From assembly GCA_023231475.1 (NCBI GenBank), contig JALJEE010000137.1:1-64000 (forward strand): a DNA stretch of 64,000 bases. Reading direction: 5' to 3'. A program made the translations under genes and the position numbers. How positions within the stretch are numbered: the stretch's first letter is position 1; every line of letters begins with the position of its first letter. Shown here in pieces: positions 1,529 through 61,900 of this stretch. The DNA is from Seison nebaliae. Lineage: Eukaryota. A model generated the notes under the pieces. The model saw only the letters and a program-made list of their open reading frames with translations, was not told the DNA's origin and did not search any database.

Positions 1529-4500
1529 ATGACGAGTTTGCTCAGGAATAAAGCACATGAAAAAGTGAAAGGGAGTGAAAGTTTAAATTCCTATGGGGCG
1601 AAAGATCTATATGGAATTGCTCTCAAACGAGAATTCCATAAAGTTCGTGGAGCGCTTAATGACACTTCTGTGACTTCTGGATTAGTTCGGCAACAAACTG
1701 TTTGTCAAACACTTCAGCAAATTTATGTGGAATTTAAGTCGACTGTTTTGCCCGATTACTTTTTCTCGATGTTTCTCGATTTCGGTGATTTATTATATTC
1801 GAAGAGAGTTAAAATTTTTAAATTAATTTATTCTATGTTAACCATATTGGATTAAAGGAATATCGAATTGCCTTAACTTATTGTTATGAGATATGTGTGA
1901 AAAATTCTCAGAAAAATTTCCTTCACGCATTTTATGAAGAATTGGAAGAGACGACAAATTACAATTTCCAATCGGATCAATTTCATTCGACAGTTTTAGA
2001 ATTTGAAGAATTAATTTCTGATCCTGAAATTTCGAAATTAGAGGTTTAATCATTCAGAGATTAAAGTAAACTATTAATTTTTTGTTAAAGTTACGAGGAA
2101 TGACAGGTTATATTCTGATGAAATGTTATACTTTGATGGCTTCCGAAACTAGTGAGCTAAATAATGGGAAAAGTCACGGATCTTTTAATAATCTTTATAA
2201 CGACGATATTCGAAAGAAAGTGCTCAATATGATGCAATTATTTCGAATAATAATTGAATTAATATTGAAACAAAATGAAATTTTTCGAGAGTCTTTATGT
2301 TGGCTCATTAATTCGATCGCTTCTCATATTTATGAAATTATCAAATTGTTTATTGATCATGGATATGGTCTAGAATTGTTGAACATGTCAATTTGGATAA
2401 CAATCTCTTTCGGACGATTTATTGTTCATCAAATGCCTGATTATTTTCAATTTATTTCTCAATTACATTGCGTCACTCTTCATCTGTTGATTAAGGATGG
2501 TCAATTGAATGTATCGGAAGTTAGTTGAAATTCATTTATAATTAATTATGAAATTAATAATTAATTAATGATTATTATTAGTTATTTAATTATTTTGAAA
2601 TTAATTTAATCATTCTAGAAATTTCTCACTCGAGGTTATGAACAATTGAAATTGATGTATTCATTGATTGAAGATGAAGATAAATTTTCTTGGTCAATCA
2701 GATTCCGTGAAGCCGTTCTGAGATTGACCGTTTATGATTTTTTGTTAAACTGTTTAAATAATACGCGGAAATCGATACGGATGAGTATGTTGAAGAAACC
2801 GGTAGATAGTAAAGAATTGGGAAGGAATGAAGTTGAGAAAGAATTAGAAAATAAATTACCAGAAGGTGGAAATGCCGCACAATTCATGACATTGATGGTG
2901 GCACTCCAATATTTGTGTGATGGCAATTACAGTTATTTCCAGTCATATGGTTCCGGTTTACCGATATCGAAAGATTCGGAAAGTCAATTACTCATCGATC
3001 AGATGATTGAGGTCGCTATTAATCTGGTGAGAGAGAAAACGTTGAAATTGACGACTGAACGGAGATTATCGTATCGTAAAATTCTACATGTTCAATCTTC
3101 CAATTTGAATGTGTTCAATTTGTCGAATGTTGTACCGAAATTACAGGAGAATAATTTCATTGGAAGTATTTCTCGCTCAAATTTATCGATTCCGATTCTC
3201 GAGGTGATTCTGTTGGCGAAAATCACATTCCGTTTCGAGAATTATAGAAATTTCTTAATTTTGAAATTGTCGATCGTTAATTTTGTGGTTTTATCAAAAA
3301 TGTTACCCACTCAATATATTTATTCATATCTCGATATGTCAATGATTAGTAATGAAGCGGAAATGACAAATGAGTTGGATGAAAACGAATCGTTGTCACA
3401 ATCATTTCCTGATTGTAATAAACAGATTTTGTACAATTTAGTGGAATTGGAATTGTTGAATGAATTAGCAATTTATAAGAAGTGGTTGAAAGATAACAAG
3501 ATGTTACCACAATCAATTTTATCAAATAAATTAGTGACACAAGGTCTATTGGATTTGATGCAGATGGATCTGTCGAAAGATGATAAAAAAATGAAAAAAA
3601 AGATATCAGAAACCACATTATTAAATTCCATCGAAATGATATTAATTCGATTATATAAATTGAATTTATTGAAGAATGAATTCTTCCCGATAATCGATAT
3701 CGATTCGAATTTATTGAAAGATTGTCTACTATTCGTGACGACTAATATTGATACGATTTTAAAGAATCACATTCCAATTCAACAATTGCCTCAAATCGAA
3801 TGGTTTCGATTAATTCCTGATTTGGATGAATGGATAGTTTTATTGGAATTACTCATTTATTTAATGGAAGAAATATCGTTGAGTTCGATAGATATGGAAT
3901 TATATTTGGGAATTACTTCAAGAATTGCACATTTATTTCAAACTCTCCATTTCTTCCATTATACGATGGAAATGAAAGGAAATGAATTGAAGAATATTCT
4001 CAATAAAATTCGAAGTACTCCTATCAATCTCTTCAGTAATACCGTTAATATGACGACATATCAAATATATCATCGTAATTCTCTCACGGCTTTATACAAT
4101 GCTATTGTCAATTTAAATTCATTCAAATTTCAGAATAGTAAATTGGAATATATTTCTTCGAATTTATTTCGTAAATTGAAATTCAACGAATCATATTTGA
4201 CACTGAACGGTAAATTAATTATTAATAATGATGATATTCAAATATATGATATCTTCAACGATATTTCGAACGGATTTGAAGAGAATGATAATTTAGAATC
4301 AAAACTACTCAACATTCTATTATCGTCAAGTTATGTGTGTGATATTTCTTGGCATAAAATATTTATGAATATCGCTCTGCATTTCGACGAATGGAATAAA
4401 GTGAAAAATTCAAAAGAGAAAGAAAAATTTTCAAAATCTGAACCACAATCTCCCAAAGAACGATCGATGTCAATCGCTCCCAAATTGAGTGATGGTGAAG

Positions 4501-7500
4501 GCACAACTAATTTACAAGCGACATCACTTCAATTATTACAAAAAATTGTCAACCAAACAAATGAAATTGTCTACTCTGATAATTTAGCACAACAAATTAA
4601 TGATCGATTCAAATGGGATACGAAAGAGCGAACTCATTTAATTTTAAAGATTCATGAAGAATTCAATACGAAAATAAATTTAAATAATATTTATGAACAA
4701 TACTTCTTAACTCTTTTCACTAACATACTCAAATTACCTGAGGCAAATGAACATCATCAAATCTCTCCTGCAGAGCAAGAAAGTAATCGAATTTCGAACA
4801 TAACTAAATTAACGAAACTTCTTCAACGTCAAATAAAAGCGTCGGGAACTGACAAGAAACTTCAATTAATAATTTATTCGACTTATTTAATTGTGTTGGG
4901 TGAATTGACGAAAAAATATCGTGTTCGAATTGAGAAACATAACGAGCAGATTAAACCGATTCTTGAAAAATTATCGAAATTATTGGAAGCCAGTGAGGAA
5001 GAGGAATGGAATTTATTTCAACATTCTTTCTGTAAATACACGAAGAAATTCGATGTTGTTCGAAACAGTTTCCACGTTCCCATATTGAGAAGTTCGACAA
5101 ATTTCAAATTTTTCATCATTGCTGATTTGCAAGGAACCAAAATGAATTCGACTACACATTATGCTATTTATAATCGAGAAGTCGATTGTGAGGGAGTTCA
5201 CGCCTTAGTCTCCGACGATACATTTAAAGGTTGTGGAGAAATGATACCGATAACCATTCCGACGGTGACTATCCATAACGTGAGACCATATCAACCATAC
5301 GTTCAATCTATTGGATTCTTTTCATTCGAAAATAAGAATCCCATTAACAATCTTTTCAATTGGCCGACAATCTCCATTCCTGCATCTGCCCAATTATCAT
5401 CATTAAAATGTTATTCTCTTATGTGCACGGCTACTTATAAGACGCAGCAATTGAATCACTTCAAACAACCGTATTTAAGGTTATTAGATTACTTTCTTGA
5501 GATTCCCATAAAGAGAAGTTCAAATTATACGTCCCATCTCACAAACCATCAAATTCCATTAAAGTTCCATTTTTTTTATATTCAAATTTTTTTAAAAAAA
5601 TTTTATAAAAAGATGTGATAAATATGTGTTGGGTATAACACCACCATCACTCATACGTTGTTTCATTCGGAATATATTCGAATATGTCGAATTGAGATCG
5701 TTAAGAAATTGCTTGAAACCATATCTCCTTTTCGGCTTACCTCACAATACTCAATCTCATGTTAATTTCAATTCATTAATTTTTTAATTAATTTCCTTCT
5801 AGAAATTAAGATTGACATTAATCGATCATTTATTCTTATCATTCAATCTCGCCACATTCCTCAACGAACAATATTTTATGATTCAACAATTCTTCTATAT
5901 GTATCTACTAATCATTCCTTTCATTCAGAAAGGTAGTGAACATGAGAAAGTGAAGAATGTTATTAATCAAATGATCACCATCTATCTCGTCTTGCCACAA
6001 GGCAAACAATTCTTTAATGTCATTAATAATTATCCGATGACAGAACATTCGTCATATATCGTATCGAATAATTTCGAATCATTAGAGAATTATTTGGATG
6101 CGAAAACGATCAATTCTCGGAATAAAAATTATCTGACCTATTACAACTTTTTCAAAAATTTCACCAACTCTTATCTTTATATGATTAGTATCATCATTAA
6201 ATATTTCATTCGAATTCATCAGAATGAATGGCAATTTTATGCACAATCTGATATGGGCAAACGAATCATCAAAACTTATACGGAAACCATCGATCAATTT
6301 AAATCATTTCTCACTGACGAATATAAATTGATTAGTACACCCGCACCTATCGAAATTATACGATTTGACGTATTAACGTTCTCGAAGGAGATTATCGATT
6401 TTTTCGATTTTTCGAAAAATGAACCGAATATCAATAATTATCGATTGATCATCGCCAATTATGATCCCAATCAAGACAAACCGATGAAGAATATATTGAA
6501 GGAAATTAATAAATTACGACGATCGGGTATTTATTTCCATTTACTTTTGTCCATCTTCCACAAACATTTCCTCAATGATAATATGGATCCATTAAAATCA
6601 TATATTATTTGCATTCTTCATATGTTCAAATTGAAATTCGAAGAGTATTCGAAATTGAATAAAATTGGTAAGCGTTCCCAAATCAATGGGGTGAGCAAGG
6701 AAGATCTGGGGAAGAATATGACGGCTTTCGAAGAAGTATTATCACCAGAATTGATTCCCATCATGAAAATTTTAAATTATCGTACTCCAACTAAAAACGA
6801 CATGACGGCTCTCGGCTTAACGAACGACGATCTCTATATTTTTTTCCACAATCCGGTTTATCCTCCGACGGAAATACGGAACGTCAGTTTGACGAAAGTG
6901 AAAATGCAAAGTATGGCGACGAAATATAAGCAATCGAAAGCGTCATTTGAGAAATTGAGAAAATATGTTCGTCGTCATAAATATCGAAAATTTGCAAGAA
7001 AGATCAACGAGATAAATATGAAAGTTTAAAATTAATTAATATAAAATAATTAATAAAATAAAATTATATAAAAAAATTAAATGTTTCAGTTCAATCTATT
7101 GTTAGCTGATATCGATACGTATTGTTTATTCGCATTAATAAACGGAATGTCGAATTATGAAAATAAATCGAAAGAACAAAACAATTCCATCAATTCAACT
7201 ATTACACCATTTTATTCCACTTTGAACGAGTTAGATAAATTTAATCGATATTTTATATCGATTAATTATTTATTATTTTAATTAAATTTTAAAATTGTTA
7301 GATGTACATTATTGGAGACTTATAAGAATCAATTAATCGATCCGTCATCATCAATCAAATCATCATTATCGACCGATATGGTAATGACGGAGAAGAATGA
7401 AAATTCGACTATAAATATTTTGAGAACGAAATTTGCGGGAAATAATTGGCAAATGTCAGACGCTGCTAAATTCATTCAATTATTATGGAATTCTTTAGGA

Positions 7501-10500
7501 TGTGATGGTGACGTTGTCGATAACGATTTGTCGTTAATTCGAGAACGACCGATAATGAAACCGATCGGTTATGAATGTCGATTGAGTATCTCAGCTGTGA
7601 CAATGGCAGTTTACAATATTTTTAGATGTTACTTGAAAATTTCAGTTCTCAGTTATCGATATAACGATTTCAAACTACTCCAAAATGTTAGTCAGTTGAT
7701 GTTACAAAAGTTTAATTTGATCAGTCAATTGGTGAGTGACTTAACTTTCATCGCTTACAAACCATCGAGTAAGCAAACACCGAAACCGAAACTCCACACA
7801 ATTCTCTTCACATTTAAAGATTTTTTAAATCTAACATGGAAGACTTGGTATTTGACGGCGGATAATTTATGTGATATGCTTTGGAATTTCATTCTCCAAC
7901 TTTATCCGACCGACTCCGACCAACCCATCAATTTCTTTACGACATTAATGAGATTTACAGCTGCTGCACCATTCGGTGAATCGAGTATGTTTAAAGAACC
8001 GTTCGATATCGCCGATAAATTATTCTCAACCGTCACCGACCAAGTGAGTAAATTAGGTGGTTTGACGATGAATAATTTGAATGATGATAATAAAAAACGG
8101 ATTGGATCGAGTAATTTATTTCATAATGAAATGGCAATAATTTATGATATTGATTGGGAAAATTTCATTCATTTCTCACTCTTCACTATTCATCTCCTCC
8201 TCATCAAAAACAAATGGGAACATGTAATTAGTTTAGGACTCAAATTCTCGTTTATTACCAGACAACATTATGATGGAACCGTTTTGCCCATCATCATTCA
8301 TGCACAACAACAGATAAAGAATTTGATATTAATCAATCAAAAATCGTCGAGTGATGGATCGTCTCTAAATATGTACAATTATCTCTACAACGATAGTTTT
8401 CCGTTCATGTTAAGTTATATGGAGAAAATGATGATTTTGGAAGTGTTTCAATTGATGAATCCTCCAAGAGCTCTTATGAGAAAATCACATAAAGTCACAA
8501 AAAACAAAGCGAATAAGCCAAGTGTCGAAGGAGATAACAGTCCCACCAGTTCTTATTATTACGGTTCCAGTTCCGGTCGAACGAAACCATTTTTTCCCAT
8601 TCTCGTCGGTGTTCCCTTGAATAGTAAACCGTTATTAGAACGTCTCAAAATGGTAACTAGTTCATTTGATACCGAATCGATCGACATGTATAAAGATTCA
8701 AATTGTCAATTCCTTCCTTGTCCGTCCCAATTCACCATCATAATCAATGATAATGTTTATTCAAGTGAAAATTTGAAAATAATTTCAACTAAGAAATTGA
8801 ATTGGCGACCAGCCAAAAGTCCGGCGTTAGCATCAATAATGAGAAAATTGTCCATTTGTCGTGAGAGATACAAATTCTATTTAGATCAATATCAATCAAT
8901 GAAACAACAACAACTCGCAAAAAATATAATCGAAGAGAAAACTGCCAAATTTTTAGATGTCGCTTTATCGGCTTATCGTCAGGCGATGGATTGTTTCAAT
9001 AAATCATCGTTAACATTTAGTGGAATAAAATTCCAGATAATGAATGAATTCGCCATTCTGAAGTACCATTCAAAAAAGTATTTGGAAGCGTTACAATTAT
9101 GGAATTTGATTTTGGATCGAATTCTCAATCTATCTAATTCTAGTACAAAATGGTTGTCGTTAGTAGATAATGAGGATGATAAAGAGATAATTATTTTAGT
9201 GGAATGTTATGTGGCAGCCCTTCGACGTAACATGTCGTCGTCGAATATGATAAAAGAGACGAACACTTTCCTCCAATATCTTATCGTTTATGCGATTTTC
9301 GTAGTTTATCATATCGGCCGTTATGGTGGTTCCAATAGTTCCAGTCATTCACTTGAATGTTATTTATTGATTGGGATTATATCAATAATTCTCATTCAAG
9401 AAGAGAATCCTCTTCAACCATCAAATCCCTTATTATATGCGGGGTATAATGTCTTCGATTGTAATCGATCGAAATCTATCGACAAAAATTTAATTGCAAA
9501 TTTAAAAATTTTTAAAAACTTCTCGAAAATAAGTCCTACCAAATTCATTCATATCCTCCTCATCGTCTCCAATCATTTAGTGAATTGTAAATATTTCGAA
9601 CTCGTCTTTCCCATGTTGTCTCTCATCGAATATCTTTCCATTTTCATTACGAGACAAACAAGTATTTATGTTCAATGTCGAATTTTGCGATGTCGAGCCG
9701 CAATCGAATTAAAATTGTTCTCTATCGCTTATGATATTCTCGTACAATTGATGACTCGAAAGAACATTCCACGGGTCATTAAATGGATATCACCCATATC
9801 AATACAAATTTTTAACGATGATCCATCCAAGATTGTCCATGGTCCATTACCATCAATCAATCCGAAATTTCCGTCACTAAAAGATTTGAATTTCGATGAT
9901 AAATTGAAATTTAGTACTCCCTCCAATATTCATGCTTTGGAATTCCTTCTTAGTTGGACGATGCAAATCGAACTGGTCGAAGTGTTGGAATATTATAATT
10001 CGATTGAACTTCAATTATTATTGATCCATTTCCTCATTTCAATTTCCGCTACCATCGTCGATCCTAAATCAACTTCAACGTTTCCTTTTTTTTCATTTCA
10101 TAACAATATCATTAAACTTTCACAGAGATACGGATGATCTTGTCGACCGAACCGACTTGACAATTTCAGCACAAAGAACGTCCAAAATAGGTCAGGATTT
10201 TTTTGAATTTTCTTATTTGAATTTTTCAGGAACGAAAATTAATAAAAAGAGAGAACGCAATTCAAACGACATAACCTTTCTTAAAGATTGTATCATGGAG
10301 AAATGTTTAGTATTAATCACGGCTCAATTGAATATATTTTCTGTGAAACCGACGAAATTCGGGAATTTATTGACGAATTATGTGAACGAGGATCAAGTGC
10401 AGAAAGTGCAAGAACAATATTTATGTTAGTCTGAGATTCGATTGATGAATATGTTGCGATTAAATTTCTACTACTTTTTTAGTTTCCGATACTCCGCCAT

Positions 10501-13500
10501 ATCTACAAAATTGGATCGAGTTTTATTATTATATTCAACTCACGATATATTATGCGCAAATGTATCAGGAATTGTCGATGAATTTCTTCTCACTTCAAAC
10601 TATCAAACGATTGTTGTCCAAATACGACGTTTGTATTCAACAATTAGTTGAGAATGATCCCGATCCGTTTGAATTGAATAAAATGAAAGATACAACAAGT
10701 GAAAATTCTCAATCAATTAAATTTACAAGTATTCCTTGGTATCCTGGGACGGAGAGTGAATTCAATGAGAAAAATGATTTTTATAAATTCTGTTTAATTA
10801 CGAATGGGGAGATGTGGTTGAATCTGAAGACACTCTATATCCGATATAAGATGAACGACCATAAATTTATGGTGAATGAGATGACGGCAAAAAGTTCAGC
10901 TAAACAACTGATGGCCGTCCAACATAATACATTATTCTACTGTAATTCATTCATTGAGAGTGAGGAATCGAAAGAATTATCTCATGGAAAATACAGATTG
11001 CCGATAGTTTATTATTATCGTGCGCGAACTCTCGTCAATACCGGATCGACATCAACGGCATTGACAAGTATTCTTGTTAGTAGAAGAGAAAAATATTTCT
11101 TTAATTATAATTATTTATTTTAATAATATTTAAATAAATTTAATTAATTAGAAAGGGATCGAAATGTTGGAATCAATTAAATTACCATCAATTTATCATC
11201 AACAAATTCTATCGATGTCTTATTTGTTGAAAGTGAATTTGATGACGTTCATTAGTCAATATCAATTATCGATTGTCGAGTCGTATGAGAATCGATTGGA
11301 TGGTTTGAATTATATACCGATAATTAAACAATCATTGAACAAATCATTGAAACTTGAATTATGTTCTGTTAAATTTTTAATTATTTATATATTATTCATA
11401 TGAAATCGCTTAAAGTTAATGGAATATGGGAGAGATGTTAAATTGTATGAGAACAATCAATATTACTTAAGTACACCGTTCACAAACGAGAATGAGATTG
11501 AGAGGTATTGGACGACAATAATCGATCCGTTTTATCATTTAATTCAAACGAAATTGGCGATGGGTCGCTTGAAAATTGGTGAATTTAACAATTTGCCTTT
11601 AAAAGGAATTAAATTACATTTATTATTCGCACAACAATTCGAACATCTCTCCCAAATCTACAAATTGTGGAGACAAATCAATCGATATATGAATGAAACG
11701 GCATCGATACCGTTTCTCATTGAAAGCGAATTTCATTCGTTCACCTGGACACTCTTCTCTTCCATTCTAATAACATTCAATCAATTCGCTTCAATTGATA
11801 AATCAAATAATTCCGAACTCTTAAAAGTGGAAGATAGTGAAGCAATTAAAAGTATCTCTCATTTGACATTGGACGAGGTGATTGAAATTTCGGAGAAATA
11901 TACAAAATTCATTTTAGAGAACTTTCCCGATTACAGTTTTCTTCGAGATATTCAACACAATATCATCGCTTTCTATGTCCGTCTGTACTTCTTTAGTTAA
12001 ATTTTATTTTTCTTCAAATAATTTGAAAGTTCATCGTTCGGATAGGTGAAGAAGAAGAGAAAATGATGTTATTCACTGGAATTGAGAAATATGTAGAGTT
12101 TCTGATCGAATATCAAGAATTGAATTCGCAACGTTCTGAAATTTTTTCGAAAGAAAAAGAATTTTTCAATCGAACTGAATTCGAAATTATGCCCTACTGT
12201 CTATTAGCTAATGTTTACGCTATTTATTATCTTTTTGCACCACAAACGAAATATGCAAATAAAGAAGAACAAGAAGTACTCGTTCATTTACCGGAATTGC
12301 GGAATGTGAATGACGAGAAACCATTTCATTTGTTACAACATCTGAAACTGATAAAAATCAATTTACAAAAGTTATATAGTAAAGAAGAAACAACACCTCA
12401 ATTATTATTAATTGATATTTTGGAATATCTTTTAAATCTCTCACAACATATCACACTGACAAAAACGACCGGAATCGTTCCAGAAAAACATTCGAAATTC
12501 AGAAAAAGTTCCGTTTCTTTTTATTCTTTCTATTTTTCTTCATGAAGTTTAGCTGAAAGGTATATCATTCCCATCGTTCAATCTCCACATTACCATTCAG
12601 TTTGTCTTCAGTTAGAAGATGCACGAAGACTGCACGGTTTTATTTTTTCGTTTTATTATCTATTCTATTATCTTTATCGTCGTAGATGTTCAACTCATGG
12701 CCGCTATAAGTCAGTTAGCTAAGGCTCGTGAAGTAAAACGACAAAAATCGGAAACGAACAAAAAATCAAATCCATCAAATAGTCAAATTACAGGAAGTGC
12801 AACAGCTCCAACCACAACTGAAGGAAAATCGAACAAAACAAAGGTGTCAAGTCGTAAGTCGGGAAAGACGTCGAAAACCAAAAAGAAGAAAGTGAAACCG
12901 AAAGAAAAAATGGACGAAAAATCACAAGTTGGGACAGAAATGAATATTCGAATTCTCGTCACTAGATATATTGTGACATCTCTCGACGTGCTCTCCATAA
13001 TTGGATATAAGAGAAATGATTATCTATCTCTCGTCATTTTAAGATCGACTGATACGAATCATACAGTGGATGTTATACCGATGTTGAAGAAAGATTTGTT
13101 TGCATTGCAAAAACGGTTATCCACCATATTTATTATTAAATTTTTTATTTATTAATTACTACAATTATTATTTTTATCTAGATTAGATAACTTGACGAAA
13201 TTTGTGATATCGGAAGAGACGGAAGATACTATGGAAGTTAAAATTATTTAAATTTGAAAATTTTTCACAATTTTTTTTCATTTTAATCATTATGTGCAGA
13301 ATTGGTGCACTGATTTTTATCATGCAATCGTATTGACGAAATTGGAAGAGAAAGGAAGGAATGATTTACATAAACGATATCAAAAACAAATGAAAAATAT
13401 TCAGGTGTTAAAAACAGAACCATTGGAGTTGACTGAAGCGAATATTAATGAACTGCAACTCATTTTAAATCCGTTATCTGCTTATCTCAATCCGAATATT

Positions 13501-13563
13501 ACGAAAGTTGGACATTGGATCATCAATATTCTGAGTGAAGTGGACGAGTATTTAAAGAAATGA
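1529..13563 (+). CDS. CFAP54: Cilia- and flagella-associated protein 54 (about 18 exons, >3000 aa)
   Basis: Co-linear + strand ORFs join through 17 short GT(T/C)..AG introns. The segments LPDYF..FGDLLYSKR|EYRIALTYCY, GCGEMIP..NVRPYQPY and KWEHVISLGLKFSFITRQHYDGTVLPIIIHAQ resemble remembered CFAP54 sequence. Confidence 0.75.
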
Positions 13564-15326: not shown

Positions 15327-16543
15327 ATGGCTTTCTATAAAGGTGACAGTCGAGAGGCAGATCGTGTGCTTCATTTGAGGAAAGGAATGGAGAAAAGACA
15401 AGAGGATCTCGAATTGAAGAGGAAACAACACGAATTGGAATTGAATGAATCGGTAAAAATTTCGGAAAAATTCCATAAGTTGAGTGATGAAACGGAAACG
15501 AAGTTAAGTATGTCGACTGTCGGTCTGTTATCATTGGAAGAAATGAAGACGGTTCGAGAAATGTTCCGAAGTGAACAAGAAGATGCGAAAGCGAACGATG
15601 TTACGCCAAAGAAAATGAAGAAGATTTCCATTCCTAAATGCAAAGTTTTTTTTTATAAAAATTAAATTTTTAATTTAAATTTTAAATAGTTGGAGAAATT
15701 ATCGTTTGATTTATTTCCTGACGATGAAGAGGATGTGATTGAGGATGAAGAGAATGTGAATTTGAAAGAAGAATGTGAAGAGAAAAAGAAAATAATGGAA
15801 ACTGATAAGAAAGAAGAAGAAGTTGAAGAAGAAGAAGAAGAAGAAGATATTCAATTGAAATTGACTAAAGGAGATAAAAAGAAAGATTTTTTGAAATTGA
15901 AAGGAAGAAAACGTTTGGGAATGAATCCGAATGTTAATACGAATTTCTTACCAGATCGAGATCGAGAATTATTGGAAGAAAAACTAAGGTTGAAATTAAT
16001 CATAAAATTAATTAATTAATAATTTTAATTAATTTAAAAAGAAAAGAATTAGATGCCGAATGGAATCAACAACAACAGGAATTGAAGGAAACGATATTAG
16101 ATATCACATATTCGTATTGGGATGGAACGGGACATCGTCGACAAGTCAAAGTTGCTCGAGGTGCAACCATTCATGAATTCCTTCATCGTTCTCTTGATGA
16201 TTTGAGGAAAGAACAACAATTCAACGAATTAAGAACTGCAACAGCTGATCAATTGATTTATGTGAAGGAGGATATCATTATTCCACAATTCTATACATTC
16301 CACGATTTGATAACGACGAAAGCGAGAGGAAAATCTGGACCATTATTTTATTTCGATGTTCGAGATGATATTCGATTAGTGACTAATGCTAAAGTGGAAA
16401 AAGAAGATTCACATGCAGGAAAAGTCATTTTAAGGAATTGGTACGAAAGACACAAACACATTTTTCCTGCATGTCGATGGGAAGCGTATGATCCACATAA
16501 AAAATGGGATACTTATACGATAAAAGATTCTCGAAAGAAATAA
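15327..16543 (+). CDS. FAM50: FAM50/XAP5 family nuclear (spliceosome-associated) protein, 3 exons
   Basis: Motifs [79 protein letters not shown]. Two GTT..AG introns. Confidence 0.95.
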
Positions 16544-16619
16544 ATTTTATTTTATGTTCTTTTTAAATTATTAAATTCATTTAATTAAAGTTCGAATAAA
16601 AATAAAAAAATTTTTAATT

Positions 16620-17847
16620 TTAAATTACATTTAACATACTTCTCATCTCGTTCAATTGAGAAGTTAACCGTTCTTCGATCAATTGAACTTTGTCGTTTTG
16701 GACAGATCGTAATGACGCCACTGTATCTTGTACCGTTTCGAATCCTTCACGATATTCCTTCTTCAATCTCGAATGTTCCTCCATTAACGTGTTGAACTTC
16801 TTCTCCATATTATGGAGATATGATTCTTGAATAGTCTAAAAAAATTATGGAGAAATTTTAAAAATTAGAAAAGAAAAAAAAACTTCTTGATTCGATTTCA
16901 ACATTTTCAATTGTCGATCTATTTCCGTTCGATGATTATTGATTGTCATACCTAAACGATTTCCAATTTCATCCGCTTTCTTCTCGAATTGATCCTGGAA
17001 AATGATTCGTTTAATTAGATTAACATTTCGATTTGGAAACCGTTTGATTTTTCATTCTGGCGATATTTTCGTTTTGGCGAAGTTGTTCCTGTTTGAAATT
17101 GTTGTCCATTCGATTTGATACTTCTTCTATTAACGTTCGTGTCTTCGTATCGAGTAATTGGATATTTTTCACGGAATCACCTTCAACATTTTTCAGAACA
17201 ATTGTTTGTTCCATTAATAATTTTTCTAATTTCAATTGTAATTCAGAAATATTTCTTCGATTCTCCAAAAGTCCTTCGGCAAATTTCTCATAGTCCATAT
17301 TTTTCTTCTGTTCCATATTCGACAATCGAACATTCATATCATTCAAAATCGATTCGATCTTTTGCAATCGTTGATCATTCGTTCCGATCTTTTTATCGAG
17401 ATAATCACCAGATGCACTCAATTTATCAGCTACTAATCCGACGTCATTCTTCACATTATTAAATTCATTGCCTTGCATCTGAAATTGACTATGGAGAGTC
17501 TATTTAATTATTTCCATTTTAATTTCCATTTAAATTTATTTCAAATTCCAACTTCTACATCCGTATTCAATTTCTTGCAAACTGCCGTCATCGTCAGGAT
17601 ATGATCTTCTAATAAGCCTTTCCTTAGTGAATCATCATTTTGATTTTGATAGTTCTGATTAATATCATTCGCACGTTCTGTCATCAGATTCAAATTTGTG
17701 AAGAAAAATCAAAATTTAACGTACTAAATGGTAAGTTGACGGTTCGTTTCGGGCGGATATCGGTTGAGAATAAGTTTCCTGATGAGTAATCGGATTCCGA
17801 CTCACAACAGTTCTTTTATTGTTACGAGAATTCCCATATTGACTCAT
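16620..17847 (-). CDS. FAM81: FAM81-like coiled-coil protein, 5 exons
   Basis: The spliced product contains LLEDHILTMTAVCKKLNTDVE, IQLLDTKTRTLIEEVSN and EGFETVQDTVASLRSV, matching remembered FAM81A/B blocks. Four GTT..AG introns. Confidence 0.75.
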
Positions 17848-39765: not shown

Positions 39766-39935
39766 AGAATTGCCTCTTCGTTGAATTGTGTTGACTATTC
39801 ACAATTGTAATTTTATTCTAATTATTATCATTCCATCTCATTCCACTATATAGAGAAATGGAAGAAATATTCTAATAAAGAAACAATTCGTTTTTTATTT
39901 CACATAAAACAGTGCGCGATTTATTCAAGTGTTTC

Positions 39936-45743: not shown

Positions 45744-47138
45744 ATGGAAACATTTAATATCAGTCGAAATGTTATCGCGATCCTCTGCGTCATTTTCGGT
45801 TTACCCACTAACTTATTGGCTATCTGTCTCATCATCCGTTCGCTATGTCGACGGAAGTCGCACTCGAACAGTCGTCGACAAACGATGTGCGTTTCAATCA
45901 ATCAACCTTCATCGGAAATACTGAAACGAACCGGAACACAAATCAAAAGAAAGTCGTTGATAACGACCTCAACCAAATCACAATTGATGACTCAGAAAAC
46001 GGTATTTAATCGTTGCAATTCGTTCAATACCAATCGATTAGGATCAACATCGGATGAAACGGAAAATTATCATCATCGAAAAGGCACGTCTATCAAGAAA
46101 ATTCGAATTCCAAAATCCATTCAACTCTTTTTGTTGCAGATGATTTTTTTAGATTTAGTCATTCTTATTTATTGGTGGACGGAGATCGTTTGGACGATTT
46201 ATAATAAGAATCAATTGAACAAAAATAATCGTAACAGTTCACTTCATGTTCGATCGCGCCGACCAAAAAATTTAATGTCGTTATCATCAGTCCATTGTTA
46301 TGGAATTATCATCGTCAATAAAACAGCCATTTTCCTCAGGAATTGGTTATTGTTGATGTTTACTCTCCAGAGAATGTTGGCAATAGTATCGCCATTGAAA
46401 ATGAGAAATATCCTCTACACGATGAGAAAGGCATCATGCAATCTCATAACTTTCTGCTCATTATTGTTGATTTGTTTAACTTGCATTATTTGGTTAACGG
46501 TATCAACTCAACGATATCAAAATGAACGATGTACAATCACCGTCACATCAAGACAGCATGCTGCAATTCATAATATTGTTTATGGAACTATTGTTTATCT
46601 CCTCCCTTGTATACTCATTCTCATCATTAATTGTGCACTGTATAATGCAAGTCGATTACAATCTAAACGAATCAAACTCTTCTCATCCACTTATCCTCAG
46701 CCTCGTCGTTCCACATTAGCCATAACTGACAAAACACTCGATGTACCCAAAAGGAGTCGTTTAAGCAAGTATTCGATTGTTTACAAAAAATCTTTTTCAC
46801 ATTCAACACACTCAAAAGATCATAAAACTCAAAGAACTATTTCAAGGAATCTTCAATTACTTTTAGCTGTCTCATTCTCCTACATCGCCTTCTATCTCCC
46901 TTATGCCATAATATTCATCATTCGTGCATTAGCTAATCGATCGTCAAGCATCTACTCAACCGTCAAATATTTAAGTGTCATTTTCGACCAAATGAGATAT
47001 TTCGGACATATCACAAGCTTCTACGCTTACATTCTCACCGGAAAACATTATCGAAGACAATTAGTGGAATGTACACGAATAATAATCTGCTGTTCATGTT
47101 ATCAACATTTCAAGAAGAAAATTAATCATTTATTTTAA
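45744..47138 (+). CDS. Rhodopsin-class (class A) GPCR, orphan peptide-receptor-like, intronless
   Basis: Seven hydrophobic segments: TM1 GLPTN, TM2 LQMIFLD, TM3 C..WLL.MFTLQRMLAIVSPL, TM5 LLPCILILIIN, TM6 FYLPY, TM7 SFYAYILTG..YRR. Confidence 0.9.
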   Translation: METFNISRNVIAILCVIFGLPTNLLAICLIIRSLCRRKSHSNSRRQTMCVSINQPSSEILKRTGTQIKRKSLITTSTKSQLMTQKTVFNRCNSFNTNRLGSTSDETENYHHRKGTSIKKIRIPKSIQLFLLQMIFLDLVILIYWWTEIVWTIYNKNQLNKNNRNSSLHVRSRRPKNLMSLSSVHCYGIIIVNKTAIFLRNWLLLMFTLQRMLAIVSPLKMRNILYTMRKASCNLITFCSLLLICLTCIIWLTVSTQRYQNERCTITVTSRQHAAIHNIVYGTIVYLLPCILILIINCALYNASRLQSKRIKLFSSTYPQPRRSTLAITDKTLDVPKRSRLSKYSIVYKKSFSHSTHSKDHKTQRTISRNLQLLLAVSFSYIAFYLPYAIIFIIRALANRSSSIYSTVKYLSVIFDQMRYFGHITSFYAYILTGKHYRRQLVECTRIIICCSCYQHFKKKINHLF

Positions 47139-47141
47139 TCT

Positions 47142-48021
47142 TTAATAAATCGTCGTCGTCATGGGAGACAGCATAATCAAACCATCACCTCGTAAAAATA
47201 TCATTGGGAATTGTCTTCGTTTCGTCTGAAAAGAAACAAGAAAAGAAAATTATTTTTGGAATTGTAAATTTAAAATCATTCTTTTCTCTCGAAGAATTCC
47301 CAAAATTTTTTTCACAGAAAATTTCCTTAACTTTAATTAAAAACTATTGAAACGTAGTATCTAAAAACTTATTCTTTCTATTTTTATTTAAACAAAAACT
47401 CTAGAAATCGAATCGAATGATAAAAAATTTTGGTAAAAATTAAATTGCAGATAAAAATTTTTGGGAAAATTTAATTAAAAGGTAAATATTCTTTGGAAAA
47501 TTAAAATGATGGTGAACATTTTTTGAAAATTAAATTGACGAACTTTGGAAAATGAAGTTGCGATAAAGATTTTCGAAAATTAAGATGCAGATAAAAATAT
47601 TTGGGGAATTTAATTTTCATAAATAATTAAATAGCAGATGAAAAGTTTTAAAAATTTAAATTATAAAAAATTAAAATAACTTTATATTCGATTTCGTTCG
47701 TCTCTTCATCTAAGCACTCTTCCATTATAGTTTCTTCCACTTCCGATAATATCATGTTCATGTGATGATCATATGCCTGAATTGATAAAAATGATGAAAA
47801 AAGTAGAAATTGAATAGCAGAAAGAACATGTAATCTTCCTTTGATTTCACGATCTTTATGCATTTTTAAATGGACACGTTGATCCAAACATAATCGAACT
47901 AGATCGATAGGTGAATCGACAGCGATTCCTGTCCCATCTCTAGTTTTAGTCGAACTACTAACTGGCGATTCCTAGAAAGAAATTAATCAAAAATAATTTA
48001 AAAAAGAAATAATACTGGCAT
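47142..48021 (-). CDS. LSM3: U6 snRNA-associated Sm-like protein LSm3, 4 exons
   Basis: Spliced product [83 protein letters not shown] aligns end to end with remembered LSm3. Confidence 0.92.
47418..47660. repeat. Degenerate ~30-bp tandem repeat (about 7-8 copies) inside the last LSm3 intron
   Basis: Recurring unit resembling GATAAAAATTTTTGGAAAATTAAATTGCA, e.g. at 47450 and 47590. Confidence 0.7.
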
Positions 48022-48756: not shown

Positions 48757-50283
48757 ATGGAAGAATATAAACAAGTTCTCGCACTCTATCCATATGGGAA
48801 AGAGAATGAAGATGAATTAACATTAGTGAAAGGTGATATATTGGAAGTGACTGGCACTGTTAGCTTTTTTAAAAATGTTTCAGCTAATGAGAAGAATATG
48901 TGTAGCCAGAAACTGGTTGGTATGAAGGAAGGAAAATCAATATAACATTTTCGAAGAAATCGACCAATTATTATTTGTCTGATTTCGGAGTATTCCCATC
49001 GAATTATGTGACTCCTTTGGAGAAACAGAACAACGAATCTCAACCGAACGACGAGAATGACCATAATCGAAATAAACAAAAATTTAGAACTAGTTCACAT
49101 TAATTTTGATGAAATTTAAATTTGATGACAATTTTGAAATTTCAGATAGTGAAAGTGAAGATCATCTTTATAATTGGTGTAAAGTGAAGTGTAGTTTTAC
49201 CGCATCGAATCCGCATGAATTATCTGTGCAAACTGGCGATGAAGTTGCGTTAATTTCAAAAGATAAAGAGAACGGATGGTGGAAAGTACGACACAATAAA
49301 CAAGTGGGATATATTCCTCATCATTGTGTCGATTCCCATATCGACAATGTGGAATCAGTTAATTCAAATTCATTTCCTTCTTTCATTTCTCCAATTCTTT
49401 TTCCAGAATGAAAAATCATCAATCAAATCAATGGATGGAGATAAGACATCTAGAAAAAACAGGAGATCTGGTTCCAAATCCGCGAGAACGCGATCAGGAA
49501 CTGAAGGTTCTTTTTCACTTTCAAAATTTCAAATAATAAAATTTAAAAAAATTTCATTATAAAATTTAAAGAAATTAACGATATTTTCAAAACGGACAAA
49601 CATGGAATGAAGAAACCTGTTAAATTGGCTGCTTTAGAAGAAATTCATCCGATTAATGGTGCCAAACAAAATAGAATTCGGAATTCTAAGGATAATTTCG
49701 CAGATGATGATAACGAGAAACGATTAGATAAAATCGAGACATTGAAACGATCACCAACAACTGACGATCCGAAAAGAAGTTGTGAATATTTTTGAATGAT
49801 TTAAATTATTTAACATATTTAAAATTAAAAGCAAAATCCAATTTACCCAAACCAAAACGATCATCAGCTATGTTCCATTCGGAGGGATTTAATGCCAAGT
49901 CGATAGATTTGGAAACTGAATCGAACGCCGGCGAATCGGTAGATTATCGTTCGTCGAACAAACCGAGAACTTCATCGAAATTGCAAGAAATGTACAATGA
50001 AATTTCAACTTTATATGACCGGATGGGCGAGATGGAGGTGAGATTTCTTGAAAAGATCGACGCATTGACAACGGAGGTCGACGAAGAAAAGAAAGAACGT
50101 GCTTCACTTAACATCGAAGTGAATCGGTTAAGGCGATTAGTTCAGGAGTTGACGATGAAACCCTCAATTGGTCAACATTCATCTCGACGTTTCACCACCT
50201 CATCTCCTCATGTTCATTCACCATCCAGCGCTAGACGTAGTATTGGAAACACGGGAAATCATTCGCCCAATTCGTACAATTGA
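48757..50283 (+). CDS. SH3-domain adaptor, CD2AP/SH3KBP1(CIN85)-like (two SH3 domains plus C-terminal coiled coil), 6 exons
   Basis: SH3-1 ALYPY..ENEDELTLVKGDILEV..GWYEG..GVFPSNYV; SH3-2 ELSVQTGD..GWWKV..GYIPHHCV; coiled coil EVDEEKKERASLNIEVNRLRR. Confidence 0.8.
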
Positions 50284-53951: not shown

Positions 53952-55352
53952 ATGTCATTCCCCTATCACAGAATGCTACCAGCCAACTGGAACAATCACG
54001 AAAAAGTAGTTTGTGGAACGAACAACTCGATGAATTCGAACGACACCAACTCGTATTATAACAAAGAGAATATCAATATGCTTCTACCGACTTCACTTGG
54101 TGATAATTCGACTGATAACGCCAACGCGTTGGACAACAACAACAACAATAATAATACGACGAATCCGAATGTTATGGCGTTTATGGGTCTCATTAATCAA
54201 ATCGGAATGGAAACTGATAAAACGAAAGAGAAGTCGCTGATAAATAATAATCTTAATTCCAATCTATCAGAATCAGCCATGAATCCTGGCGGAATGATTC
54301 CATCGATGGCAGCGAATCAAAATGTCACAACGACTACAACGAATAATGGCGATGAAATGAGTAATGCGAATGACTTGAATAATTATGCATTGAACGTTTA
54401 TTTCAATTCTTATGCTAACTTTTTTGCAGCTAATCCGAATATGATTCCTGGAGGAATTGACATGATCAAAGACACTCTTCCACAACCAGCAAACACTGAT
54501 AATAACAACAATTTGAATAATACAGAAAATAATCAATCAGCAATGTATTTCCCTCAACAATCCGTCTCTCAACCAATACCAACTGAAGACTTTTATAATA
54601 ATAATAATAACAACAATAATAACATTTGTCCGTCGATGATAAATACGAATCAAGGCAAATCAATTCAAAATAATGAGAATGGAAATAATAAAGATAATAA
54701 GTTGGAACATTCAATGAATAGTTCATCGACATCATCAGGATTCGCTTCATCGTTCTCTTCCAATGATACGTCGACACCACATCGAAAAGAAGCGGATGAA
54801 ATTCAACCACAAAAACGACTGAAAGTCGAAGCGAACAATGCACAATCAATTACCAGTTCAGCATCTCCTGCTTCATCAGTTTCCTCTTTTGTCACAACTG
54901 CCGTCCCAGCAATTCCTCAATCGACTGATAAAAATGAAACGGCAGCAGAAATTCCGAATGACAACGAAACTATCAACGGAGTTGCTGCATTGGCAGCGGC
55001 AGCATTCTCATCAACATCGACAGCAGCTCTTTTGAGAGGAAAGAATTTTATCGCTCACAATTCAGCCCATCATCCTTCAGGTCAAAAGAAACGACCACGT
55101 CCAGTTCCAGAAGAGAATAAAGATATGACTTATTTCGAAAAACGGAAACGAAATAACGAATCAGCTAAACGATCTCGAGATCAACGACGTGTCAAAGAGG
55201 AACAAATCGCTTTACGTGCCGTTTATTTGGAACAAGAGAATTTCCAATTAAAAGCGGAACTCCATAAATTGAGGACATACATACTCCAACAACAACAACA
55301 ACAAGCACTCAACTCCTGTGAAACTGTTCAATTTACACCACTCCAATTTTGA
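53952..55352 (+). CDS. PAR-subfamily bZIP transcription factor (ces-2/TEF/HLF-like), intronless, Asn-rich low-complexity N-terminus
   Basis: [59 protein letters not shown] basic region plus zipper. Confidence 0.92.
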
Positions 55353-55684: not shown

Positions 55685-56552
55685 ATGAAATTGAAGAAAG
55701 ATCGTAAACCGAAAACTGTTAAATATCTTTTGCCTTTCTAATTATCCTTTATAATCATCGAAAGGAAATTAAGAAGGGATTGGAGAACATTCCTGATAAC
55801 GAATTTTATGAAAAACGAGGTGTTCTCTACATAGGCCATTTACCGCCTACATTTACCGAAAAAGCGATTTATGAATACTTCTCTCAATTCGGTACGATCA
55901 CTCGATTGAGAGTATCTCGATCAAAAATATCAGGTAGAAGTAAAGGATATGCATTTCTCGAATATGAACATCGTGAAGTCGCTCAAGAAGTATCGAAAGC
56001 GATGAATGATTATCTGTTGAAAAATCGATTTTTAAAATGTTCCACTTCAACTCACATAATTTCTCTAATTCATCATTCGTTTTAGGTCATCTAATTTCTA
56101 TTGATAAATGTCATGTGAAAATGTTTAAGGGATGGAATCGGAAATTCCAGACATCCAAATCCAGTATCCGTCACAAATTGCAAGTAAATCAGAAATCTGA
56201 TGAAGATGAAGAAGTTTCATTTTTAATTAAATTTAATTTTTTTAAATTTTTTTTTAAATTTCATTAGAAGCTAAAAAAGAATTTTCAGAAAAAGTTAAAT
56301 ATTATAGTACGTAAATGGCCAGAAATTGACTTCGATAAAATTGTTCATTTCAACAAACCAATCATGGAGGAGGCACAAACAGAAGAAGTTACTGTAGAAC
56401 CTGAAACACCAAAAACATCAGAAAAAGAAAGTCCAAAAACGTCAGGAAGAACATCAAGAAAACGGCAAATAAGTCAAGTGACCAGACGATCAGAAAGATT
56501 AAAGAGGAAGAATTCGATTGACGAATATTCTCCGAAGAAAATAAAAAATTAA
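55685..56552 (+). CDS. NIFK: NIFK/Nop15-like nucleolar RRM protein, 4 exons
   Basis: GVLYIGHLP..YFSQFGTITRLRVSRSKISGRSKGYAFLEY..MNDYLLKNRFLKC. Three GTT..AG introns; basic C-terminus. Confidence 0.88.
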
Positions 56553-56815
56553 AATGTTCCAACGCTCAACTATCGAATTGTTTGTTTCCTGTATTTTTCC
56601 GTTTTTATGGTTTTTGAAAATATGTTGACTATTTTCATAATAAATTCTTTTTTTGAGCTTAATATTTGAATATAGTGGTGAGATGTTTAATGAATTTTTG
56701 TTGTTGCAATTTATGTTCTTGTTTTCGATATTAAATCAAATTATATAATGATAATCGAGTCGGAATTATTGATAAATAATCAGTGATAACGATAATCAAA
56801 TTACCATTTCTTCCA

Positions 56816-57979
56816 ATGGGACTCGTTGACAGTCGTTTGATGCATGAAGCGACGAAAGGTATAAAAGTGTATAATGTGGATGCTCGAGGTCACAAGGGAC
56901 GACAAGGTCTATTATCAATATCTGATGGTTTTGTGAATTTTCGAGCGGAACCGTTGACCTTTCGGAAACGTGAGAAGAAGATTGATGGTGAGAAATCGGT
57001 TGTGGTGTTGAAGAAGGATGGTTTCAAAATCAGTTGGAATCTGCACAACATCCGGAAATATGGATCGATGGAGAATTATTTCGCCATTTATACAGGACGG
57101 AAAAGTTGTACTGGAGTTGGAATATTTATTTTCCTTTGTTGTTCCCGAATTGATTTGATGAAAAAACAAAAATCGATGATGTTGGACAAAAGTTTTGTGC
57201 AGGAGATCGATCGCATTTCAACCATCGACCAACAACAACAGCTTGAAAAGTGCTCACTCAATTCACCGTTTTCTCATGACGATATTGTGGAGGACGAGGA
57301 GAATAAAGAGAAATATATTAACCAATTATTCAATATTTTGAATCCGTCACAATTCTCTAATATCTACAATTATTCACAACCGGATTATGGAATTATTTGT
57401 AGTAGTCAACATACTCGAACTACAACCATCGATACTGAAGGTGATGGTATTGATCTGGTGAATAATATTTATAATAGTAACACGGAAAACGATACAAGAT
57501 CATCATTTTCTTCATCATCATCTATGTCGTCATCCTCCACATTCTCCACTTCCACTTTCATTCCCATCGTCTTAAGTCAACGATATGAATCTTTTTCCTC
57601 TAACGCTTCTCCGATGAGATCGTCGTCAGTGGAACAAAACGATGATTATTTAAATAATGATGTTCATGTAAATAAGGAATTTATGAAATTCGTGAAACAA
57701 TGTAACGAACCGATAGATGATGTAATCGCTTATGCCAAACCGATGAAAGTAAAAGAGGCACCGATTATTCTATCGACATATGGTCGGTCGAAAAAGGATA
57801 TTATTTATACAAAAATCGATAAAGCTGATCTCATGTCACCAGAAGAGAATAATGAAAATTTAAATGTGAAAGAAAAAGAATCGGAAGAAGATGATATAGT
57901 GGAACGAAATAGAGAGATTTTTACGTCTATCGACACTTCTCGTACAGCAGTTATTGCTGACAAAAATCCTGATGATTAA
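56816..57979 (+). CDS. IRS-type PTB domain adaptor, FRS2/FRS3-like, intronless
   Basis: MGLVDS fits the MGxxxS myristoylation pattern. WNLHNIRKYGSMENYFAIYTGRKSCTGVGIFIF resembles the IRS/FRS2 PTB domain; the tail is Ser-rich with Tyr motifs (YIN, YLN, YAK, YTKI). Confidence 0.8.
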   Translation: MGLVDSRLMHEATKGIKVYNVDARGHKGRQGLLSISDGFVNFRAEPLTFRKREKKIDGEKSVVVLKKDGFKISWNLHNIRKYGSMENYFAIYTGRKSCTGVGIFIFLCCSRIDLMKKQKSMMLDKSFVQEIDRISTIDQQQQLEKCSLNSPFSHDDIVEDEENKEKYINQLFNILNPSQFSNIYNYSQPDYGIICSSQHTRTTTIDTEGDGIDLVNNIYNSNTENDTRSSFSSSSSMSSSSTFSTSTFIPIVLSQRYESFSSNASPMRSSSVEQNDDYLNNDVHVNKEFMKFVKQCNEPIDDVIAYAKPMKVKEAPIILSTYGRSKKDIIYTKIDKADLMSPEENNENLNVKEKESEEDDIVERNREIFTSIDTSRTAVIADKNPDD

Positions 57980-58908: not shown

Positions 58909-61900
58909 ATGAATGAAAATCATCTGAAGAATATCTCGTTCATTTTGAATGAGTTGAATGTTCAGTTGGAATTCGATCACGACAAACGGTACGACATCAA
59001 CATTCTGTTATTAAATTATTTTTATCAAAAAGCGTTTATCGATTAAATTCAGTTTGAGTAATATCAATCCTTCTGATTTGGATGTTGACGATTGTTTGAA
59101 GAAGTTGCGCAAATTGTTCCATTATGTCGAACGGAATTTTATTCTTCAGTTTTCTTTTAAATTTCCATTGGAAAATTTCATTTTAAAAATTTTCAAAAAA
59201 ATTTCATTTTTTCAGACGTCATTCTGACGTGAATAACAAGAGAATAATCGATAATTTATGGATCGTATTTACTTTGTATTTGGATCATCAGAATTCGAAT
59301 ATTCGACTTTGCACCAACGAATTATTCGATCGATTCGTTACCATATTGGACGAATGTCAATCGATATCGATAGGGGAGAATGCTCTCTTGAAATTGCGAG
59401 AAAGAAGTAATGAATTTAATAAACGATATCGAACGATCGATGAAATGATCGAATCGACATTAGGAGCCATTCAAATTCGAATAACGAATTATATAATTCA
59501 AAAAAAGAAATTAAACGAAGTCGATTCGGAGACTTTAGTCTCGTTAATAACGTTCATTAATGAACGTGTTAAACGATCGATTGAATTAATAAATAATTTA
59601 TCATCTTCCAACAATTGGTATCATTCCATTCGATATTTGACGAGAATAATTTATTTCGAAATCAATAAAAATTATGATCAAAATTCAAATAAAACCGTCG
59701 TGAACGATTTACTCCAAATTATCATTTGTATATTGGGACGATGTCATTCGATCGAGAAGAATTATTATGATCGAGTATTGACATTGAATCGTTTAATTGA
59801 TGATATTAAGAACGATAAATTTCATGAATTATCTCAAATCGAATTGAAGGAATTCCTGTATCTGGAACCGTTATTTGAAAAGATACCCAAATATAGTACG
59901 TTCTATCCAATTCTCAATAATTATCTTGTCGAATCCATCATCATTCATTCCAAATCAATCTTCCAACAATTATTATGTTTCGCTCAAGAGGAACATATCA
60001 TCAATTTATGTCGATTACTTTTACATCATATTTTCGATGGGAGATATTTGAGTGGCAGTCGTCGACTCTTCCTCCAACTCTTCATTTTACTATTAACTAA
60101 TGGGAACGATACAATGAATCATCTCTCACAATTATATGAATGGCATTTAAGTACGAACATTGAATTTAAATTATTATTGAGATTTCTCGCTACCATCCGA
60201 ACGGTTTTCATCAAAATTAATGACGTTCTTCTTCACAGTGAGAAATTTAATGGAATTGAGAAATTGGATGATATTTCCGATCGACAAATCATCATATCAT
60301 CATATGATTTATTAACCATGTTAATTCCATTATTTATTCATTTTCATCTCATCGAAAAACGACATAAAATCAATTTACAATCACCTTTATCCACCACAGA
60401 TAAGTTTGATGATACTTCTAAAACTTCTTTTATTTATTTCATTCAATTGTCATACAAATTTCTCATCGAATCCAAACAAGAAATGATTCTTATAAAAATC
60501 GTCAATTTCTTCAAGAAACTTTTCCAGGAATTGACATCGTTGTCCAATAATCGATATCGATGGAAAAACGAGAATAATAAACAAAAATTTTCAAAAAAAA
60601 ATTTATTAAATTCTCTTAAAAGAGAAGAATTCAATGGTCATTCAATCATCAATCGTCTCCAACAATTATCATCATCTTATGAATTAGTAACGACCTCAAT
60701 ACAACTCCATCAATTATTGGAAGATGATGATATATTTTGGATGAAAGAACTTCTCTTCAATGAACAAATGGAAGAAGAAATTTTCGAATTGAATCTCTTC
60801 TCATTTGAACAACTCTTATCATTCACTCAAGAGACAACGATACAAATCGACAAATTATTTGAAAAAAGAATTTTCTCCATCGACGTTGACGAATTTGTGG
60901 AAATTGACAGTGTATCACCCACCAACAACTCGTCCGATGATTCGGATATTTTTGCGAAAGTCGATGACAATGAGAAAAATTTGAGAAATTTATCCGAAAG
61001 AAAATCGAATAATTTTCTCGAAAATTTTTCAGAAGACGACGACGACAACGACGACGGTGATGATGATGATGACGATGATGATGATAGTAAATGTGATATT
61101 TTTAATACAAATTCTGACAATTCGTATGAGGATGCAATTGAAGAGTTGAATTTGAAGGAAATGGATGAGATCAAATCGAAAAGTATTTCATCAATTGTCG
61201 ATTTGAATCATCTGGAATTGTCGATGGATGATGGTTTATATGAATATTATTCAAAAAAACATCTTCCTCAATCACTTCAATCCAGTTCAATAGAGAATAT
61301 TAAATTATCATTCATTCGACGATTATCTGCGACGATTTTAGTGAAATTATTCGGTTTCCAATTTCCATCAATGGACGGAAATGAAATTTTGGATCATCGA
61401 GAAATTCGAACGAAAAAATATTTGTTGAATGAATCACTTCATTTATTCTCTTCAATGATATCGTTGGATTTATCATTATTCATTTTACCGTTCAATAAAT
61501 GGTGGTTAATGAAATGGATTGTATCAAGAAAAGATGGAAATATTCCATCAACTATCGAAGAATATCTTCATAAGATTTATCCCAAAATAAACGATGGTTC
61601 TTTATTCAATAATTATTTGAGAATATCAATAAACATTTTAAATTCCATCAATTCCGTTGAAGATTTGAAAATTGATGAAATTAAAAGAAGAAATTCAAAT
61701 TTTATTTTATCTAATTTCTCGTCATATTTCCATCATTGCTCGTTATATTCGAATTCACAATTCGATTTCTCTTCGAACGTTTCAGTGAATATACTCAAAT
61801 CAATAATCGATATTGTTCCCAATTTGGACGGATGTTTCGTTTATCGATTACTTCATTCTTCTTTTATTCATTCGTTCGATGAAACGAGATCGACGTCGTC

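Follow-up and report, generated by a model that had tools for sequence, protein, structure and literature searches.

GUU in place of GUR: a single switched donor position in the introns of a 64-kb window from the rotifer Seison nebaliae

We analysed one 64-kb window, i.e. the whole stretch of 64,000 nucleotides (nt) at positions 1 to 64,000 of contig JALJEE010000137.1, from Seison nebaliae, a tiny, marine seisonid rotifer (Rotifera), and found its introns beginning almost uniformly with GTT (GUU in the RNA). The merged set comprises 82 introns in 12 genes, with 77 GTT, 4 GTA, 1 GTC and no GTG donors, in good agreement with the original prediction from the DNA sequence of about 75 GTT, 3 GTC, 3 GTA and no GTG in about 81 introns; the commonest hexamer is GTTAGT (10/82), as that prediction had also stated. 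The introns are 39 to 1978 nt long, 75 of the 82 being shorter than 100 nt, with a median of about 52 nt. We regard the GTT-donor pattern as almost certainly real in the window, and since it is present in all 12 genes and on both strands it probably holds genome-wide, as extrapolated from this one window. The G+C content of the window is 32%, and that of the published S. nebaliae genome B is given as 31.9% in the part of PMC8351084 available to us.

All mapped junctions are based on the DNA, on homology and on database gene models, and four routes were taken to place them. The S. nebaliae proteins SNEBB_008120, SNEBB_008122 and SNEBB_008113 from NCBI map letter for letter onto the window, exon 28551-28781 for instance being 100% identical to SNEBB_008120, and their exact, motif-free mapping defines 35 introns, i.e. 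33 with GTT, one with GTA, one with GTC and none with GTG. For 33 of these introns exactly one GY..AG placement exists, in each case with GT, and two more at the end of EAAT1 were solved jointly. The NCBI models are themselves predicted and, if their predictor was trained on this genome, may carry the same bias toward GTT. By the second route, all in-frame GT or GC donors and AG acceptors in the vicinity of 15 EAAT introns were scored against a hidden Markov model (HMM) built from 119 EAATs outside Seison. At 12 of the 15 junctions the GTT donor was best by at least 7 bits or the sole open solution, one junction favours GTT by 1.9 bits, and at two junctions non-GTT alternatives score up to 1.4 bits better. 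The third route used the reading frame alone, asking for alternative in-frame GTs within 30 nt of 79 curated introns; 49 have none, and these comprise 46 GTT and 3 GTA, while 23 of the 79 have an in-frame non-GTT alternative. The fourth route was a predictor blind to +3, which needs only GT or GC together with AG and has zero scoring within the intron. It chose GTT at 56 of 72 introns, 21 of the 72 predictions being off the curated donors. When +3 of the curated donors was replaced in silico by A, G or C, it retained 45-50 of the same sites while its GTT calls fell to 10-13. As its calls follow +3 when this position is changed, the blind predictor does not favour GTT.

These results bear directly on the possibility of an artefact, according to which hand curation and a genome-trained predictor are both biased to GTT while the real junctions are at nearby GTA or GTG. 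Such an explanation can draw on the junctions having been placed from DNA, homology and gene models, on the predicted nature of the NCBI models, and on the in-frame alternatives and displaced blind predictions counted above. It is opposed by the introns lacking any in-frame alternative, nearly all of which are GTT, by the 12 homologue-pinned junctions, all of which are GTT, and by the loss of GTT calls on in silico change of +3, and we consider it highly improbable.

The junctions which the original prediction had pinned by conserved motifs mostly hold (a slash marks the intron). Against the non-Seison HMM the best placements are GTTAGT at 28499 and 36074 for MW/YSP, GTTAAT at 28784 for ASS/AATL, where the paralogue has GTTCCA at 36355, and GTTAAT at 29357 and GTTAGT at 36812 for WML/DR. 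The LSm3 junction RLH/AYD (GTTCTT at 47827) corresponds to a 17-residue insertion compared to human and fission-yeast LSm3; relative to the human protein this insertion is exactly a 51-nt GTTCTT..CAG intron, in frame and without a stop. For the SLC22 junctions QE/FDLVC (19460, GTTCTT) and TIR/GVG (22956, GTTACT) the support is partial, consisting of an open 605-codon frame and of a homology comparison covering only the exon before TIR; one SLC22 exon matches solved SLC22 chains, and in a homologue search with one SLC22 exon none of 22 candidates passed. Stop-free in-frame introns occur in LSm3 (47827-47777, minus strand, pinned by homology), as a likely case in MFS transporter a (38130-38080, minus strand) and as a candidate in the SLC22 gene (22229-22270, plus strand).

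GT..AG ends were assumed for the 47 of the 82 introns outside the three database proteins. In the CFAP54-like gene five curated donors were swapped for the database ones (four from GTT to another GTT, one from GTC to GTT), and the database model contributed one further intron, with GTC, to the curated set. Excluded from the 82 were the 42-nt in-frame GTT..AG candidate in the SLC22 gene (22229-22270, plus strand), a possible small gene at 44.2-44.6 kb, the 3' ends of both MFS genes, introns in untranslated regions, and two blind predictions within open frames (GTC 46756 and GTT 56388). Paralogous EAAT and MFS introns are of common ancestry, so that the sites are not fully independent. The 12 genes and their donors are as follows.

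1529-13563, plus strand: CFAP54-like gene (SNEBB_008113, 3689 residues; weak homologues named CFAP54), mapped exactly with the protein 100% identical; 17 introns, 16 GTT at 1808, 2044, 2520, 5564, 5761, 7024, 7230, 10080, 10425, 11076, 11368, 11996, 12508, 12637, 13116 and 13237, and GTC at 10191.
15327-16543, plus strand: FAM50/XAP5 gene (Pfam XAP5, blind prediction, open frame); two introns, GTT at 15645 and 15989.
16620-17847, minus strand: gene whose tested exon has no Pfam match (blind prediction, open frame of 338 codons); four introns, GTT at 17720, 17552 (GTA alternative 6 nt upstream), 17040 and 16883.
19067-23559, plus strand: SLC22 transporter gene, hand-curated as one open frame; 10 introns counted, all GTT, at 19218, 19348, 19460, 21669, 21921, 22437, 22632, 22778, 22956 and 23268.
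27453-30050, plus strand: EAAT glutamate transporter 1 (SNEBB_008120; exact mapping and non-Seison HMM); 10 introns in the NCBI model, GTT at 27832, 28190, 28499, 28784, 29173, 29357, 29567, 29656 and 29969, and GTA at 29919.
35084-37293, plus strand: EAAT glutamate transporter 2 (SNEBB_008122; exact mapping, and non-Seison HMM for the first seven introns); eight introns, all GTT, at 35210, 35466, 35742, 36074, 36355, 36602, 36812 and 37041.
37520-39765, minus strand: MFS/MCT-like transporter a (Pfam MFS_1, six-frame curation, open frame), which from its motifs we take to be an MCT (SLC16); 10 introns, 9 GTT and one GTA (38857, GTATGC, in an unconserved loop), the donors 38857, 38745 and 38608 being uncertain.
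39950-42769, minus strand: MFS/MCT-like transporter b (Pfam MFS_1); eight introns, 7 GTT and one GTA (40722, GTATGT) with no in-frame alternative.
47140-48021, minus strand: LSm3 gene (open 109-codon frame); three introns, GTA at 48015 and GTT at 47827 and 47680.
48757-50283, plus strand: two-SH3 adaptor gene (Pfam SH3, blind prediction); five introns, GTT at 48859, 49093, 49358, 49507 and 49779, the last with a GTG alternative 3 nt downstream that the blind predictor chose.
55685-56551, plus strand: RRM gene (Pfam RRM_1, blind prediction), presumably NIFK-like; three introns, GTT at 55718, 56039 and 56214.
58909-64000, plus strand: large gene running off the window (blind prediction); two introns, GTT at 59007 and 59149.

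For the last gene, the GTA alternative that had been pointed out at 58989 exists, 18 nt upstream of donor 59007, whereas the label HTT found no confirmation, the 1594-codon open last exon (59217-64000, plus strand) being without a Pfam or PDB match. The NCBI model of EAAT1 contains a doubtful 6-nt exon (29963-29968, plus strand) between the GTA and the GTT intron, which may be a prediction artefact; read-through ends the protein at 29929. Both the tandem EAAT pair (27453-37293, plus strand) and the tandem MFS pair (37520-42769, minus strand) have intron positions in common within the pair. The 1978-nt third intron of the SLC22 gene (19460-21437) harbours on the same strand an intronless gene of the Omp85/SAM50 family (19738-21081, plus strand). 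Apparently intronless genes encoding IFT57, a rhodopsin-type G protein-coupled receptor, a bZIP and an IRS-PTB protein lie at 31077-32225, 45744-47138, 53952-55352 and 56816-57979 (plus strand), and the possible small two-exon gene, at 44190-44600 on the minus strand, has a GTT donor near 44336 and no Pfam match.

The preference for T at +3 far exceeds the background. T follows GT at 40% of all GTs in the window (2201/5475) and at 63 of 101 (62%) unused GTs within introns, and compared to the latter frequency of 0.62 the 77 GTT among 82 donors are highly significant (p = 3.8e-11); among unused exonic GTs up to 30 nt upstream of donors, 31 of 112 are GTT. The claim that AT-richness alone does not explain the pattern thus stands in so far as 94% T is more than base composition by itself would produce. 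The argument offered for it, that A would then be as common as T, fails, as within introns A follows GT in 8 and T in 64 of 106 cases. Measured against the intron background, +3 carries 0.84 bits of information, +5 carries 0.29 bits, and +4, +6, +7 and +8 carry at most 0.07 bits, which makes U at +3 the main donor determinant after GT, as had been proposed. The remaining signal is weak: G at +5 is found in 19 of the 77 GTT donors versus 8% in the background (p = 6.5e-6), A at +4 accompanies it in 14 of these 19 versus 23 of the 58 donors without G at +5 (p = 0.016), T is at +4 in 26 of all 82 donors, and on the exon side a weak AG is visible, with G at -1 in 32/82 and A at -2 in 44/82. The acceptors are TAG (31), CAG (28), AAG (22) and GAG (1), AAG being apparently more frequent than in other animals.

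Like the canonical U2-type GURAGU donors of animals, the Seison introns have GT..AG ends, the weak exon-side AG and, in the U1/U6 register, G at +5 coupled to A at +4, although the G+5/A+4 signal is much stronger in other animals; unlike them, they have U at +3 in 94% and a purine there in only 4 of 82, and 22 of 82 acceptors are AAG. The enrichment of G at +5 and its coupling to A at +4 show that the remainder of the U1-type pattern is retained: the GURAGU register is normal, +3 alone is switched, and the best hexamer is GTTAGT. None of the 82 introns begins with GTATCC, as an RTATCCTT donor of the minor U12 type would, and we reject this type. Raw counts of branch-point-like motifs, made without a control, are CTAAT in 11/82 and TTAAT in 25/82 introns. 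We infer that these are short GT-AG introns of the major-spliceosome type, defined mostly by their short length, their A+T richness and GUU.

The introns are also short of GTA in their bodies. On the sense strand, GTA occurs 8 times compared to 21.8 +/- 4.0 expected, none of 1000 dinucleotide shuffles being as low, while GTT is not depleted (64 vs 53.8 expected) and the antisense strand of the same introns is as expected (GTA 36 vs 36.2); per GT, GTA thus amounts to 8/106 on the sense versus 36/130 on the antisense strand (p = 8e-5). No GTA deficit was found in the intergenic and coding DNA of the window, nor in exons within 30 nt upstream of donors (24/112). Relative to CTN codons, valine codons have not lost A in a GT-specific manner, which makes it unlikely that transcribed DNA has a plain mutational bias. 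Among the trinucleotide pairs of intergenic DNA (both strands), GAT/ATC shows the strongest depletion (747 vs 975 expected).

We propose a U-to-A change at nt 6 of the U1 small nuclear RNA (snRNA), pairing with U at +3, as the likeliest cause of the switch, with a probability that we put a little short of even. According to passages of PMC10581693, donor +4 faces U1 nt 5, from which it follows that +3 faces nt 6, so that the geometry assumed in the original prediction is right. An A at this nucleotide would pair well with U only and leave the other contacts intact, resulting in the loss of G and C at +3, and U alone would then fill the share of about 95% that A and G together fill in other animals. 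For the few GTA donors, a changed U1 might tolerate a single mismatch, with U6 pairing as an aid in the two GTATG cases; alternatively, a second, normal U1 gene might serve them. The rarity of C at +3, found in 1 of 78 pyrimidines versus 20% expected (p = 4.5e-7), is in better agreement with A than with G as the partner at nt 6; a G there is disfavoured since it should admit GTC. A precedent by analogy comes from Entamoeba, the one lineage that we found reported with U at +3, in which the U1 snRNA is changed to match the donors, and Physarum has both U1 forms (passages of bioRxiv 10.1101/2022.06.08.495308).

Several observations weigh against a changed U1. An Rfam scan of the 64-kb window gave no match at E up to 1, i.e. 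there is no snRNA in the window. The intronic GTA deficit, a post hoc result from 106 GTs, is the reverse of what is expected for a GUU-reading U1, and in T:A ratio the donors (77:4) are not significantly different from the unused GTs within introns (64:8, p = 0.23). In other species, too, C is seldom found at +3, where it over-stabilises U6 pairing, and this weakens the argument from its rarity in Seison. Yeasts, Giardia, Trichomonas, Thecamonas and Micromonas combine odd donors with a normal U1 (parts of bioRxiv 10.1101/2022.06.08.495308). Metagenomes scanned for U1-like motifs in which position 6 is not U yielded three loci without an Rfam match, of 54-57% G+C and coding-like, which we take as chance matches and which are uninformative for Seison.

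The GTA deficit is explained better by a model according to which a normal U1 still binds GUA, while a later or auxiliary reader, i.e. the U6 ACAGA region, Prp8, U1C, Luc7 or SNRNP27K, has changed in such a way that splicing goes ahead efficiently only with U at +3; U1 binding to GUA inside introns would in that case be futile, and selection would remove such sites. The U6 ACAGA sequence can pair with positions 2-6 of a GUU donor, and neither U1 nor U6 changed with the +4 switches of 230 yeasts, which correlate with METTL16 and SNRNP27K (passages of PMC10581693). The same survey, however, saw little variation at +3 in the passages seen, the literature passages at hand name no protein reader of +3 U, the exonic stretch just before the donors shows no GTA depletion, and the deficit itself is post hoc and based on few GTs; we judge a changed later reader to be unlikely, though a serious candidate. 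A further possibility is that nothing has been recoded specifically for U: A or U would be accepted at +3 and G or C rejected, and a loss of GUA from introns by selection or mutational bias would simply extend to the donors. The comparison of donors with intron bodies suits this rule, as the two differ mainly in the absence of G and C from the donors (A/T:G/C 81:1 vs 72:34, p = 5.6e-9) and not significantly in T:A, and real GTA donors exist (40722 and 48015). Yet 77 T among 81 is far more than expected from the T:A ratio that follows AT, CT and TT within these introns (p = 3.4e-8), the valine codons speak against the mutational variant, and the cause of the GUA loss would still need a reader, which leaves this explanation improbable. 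Finally, a normal U1 could read the donors one base out of register (GUU-RAGU), as in the GUUAAGU sites that Roca and Krainer are said to have described in 2009, which reportedly begin with GUU and need G at +6. The Seison donors likewise begin with GUU, but G at +6 is only at background level (4/77 GTT donors, p = 0.87), and A+5 G+6 occurs in 1/77 compared to A+4 G+5 in 14/77, so that a shifted register is largely refuted and barely credible.

Entamoeba offers the closest comparison. Its donors are GUUUGU in 87.9-89.5% and GUUUGN in 96.9-98.5% of introns in five species (parts of bioRxiv 10.1101/2022.06.08.495308). As there, the Seison introns are A+U-rich, GT-AG and nearly all have U at +3 (77/82); in contrast to the rigid Entamoeba hexamer with its two changed positions, as far as it is covered by that source, only +3 is switched in Seison, none of the 82 donors is GTTTGT and +4 to +6 are loose. 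Entamoeba is moreover an intron-poor amoeba, whereas Seison is an animal with about seven introns per intron-bearing gene in the window. The +4 A/U switches of Saccharomycotina associated with METTL16 and SNRNP27K resemble Seison in that a single donor base is switched, there +4 and here +3, and across 240 fungi +3 varied little and the pairing sequences of U1 and U6 were unchanged (passages of PMC10581693). Among human introns the named GUU classes sum to 3,604 of 215,155 (1.7%), and to less than 5% even if all unspecific classes were GUU (summed from Table 1, PMC5387049, seen in part). According to the same part of PMC5387049, fly and worm seldom have A at +3, a statement that conflicts with general knowledge and was not relied on.

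Our literature search, with subscription journals mostly outside its reach, found no report of GUU-dominant donors for Seison, rotifers or any other animal. GUU donors form a sizeable minority in some A+T-rich invertebrates. The available passages of PMC8351084, PMC10125929, PMC7310846, PMC11347168, PMC3033335, PMC5855946 and PMC11347140 give no donor motif for Seison or rotifers, nor did a term search of supplement 1 of PMC8351084 and of the supplement of PMC10125929 return one. As far as we found, a +3 switch to GUU is thus described only for Entamoeba and is apparently unreported in an animal.

Taken with the proposed change in U1, our data tentatively suggest a recoding of the 5' splice-site code in Seison, a first among animals: a changed U1 would have gone along with tens of thousands of donors moving from GUR to GUU at +3, the old GUA being avoided in introns. 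Lineages with changed donors mostly lack a matching change in the machinery, which the Entamoeba study, in the parts available, treats as a standing puzzle (bioRxiv 10.1101/2022.06.08.495308). An intron-rich animal with one cleanly switched donor position makes this question directly testable from public data, and either outcome would be informative, pointing to co-evolution of U1 and donors across a whole animal genome or to an unknown reader of +3. For annotation, splice models trained on other animals would misplace GUU donors.

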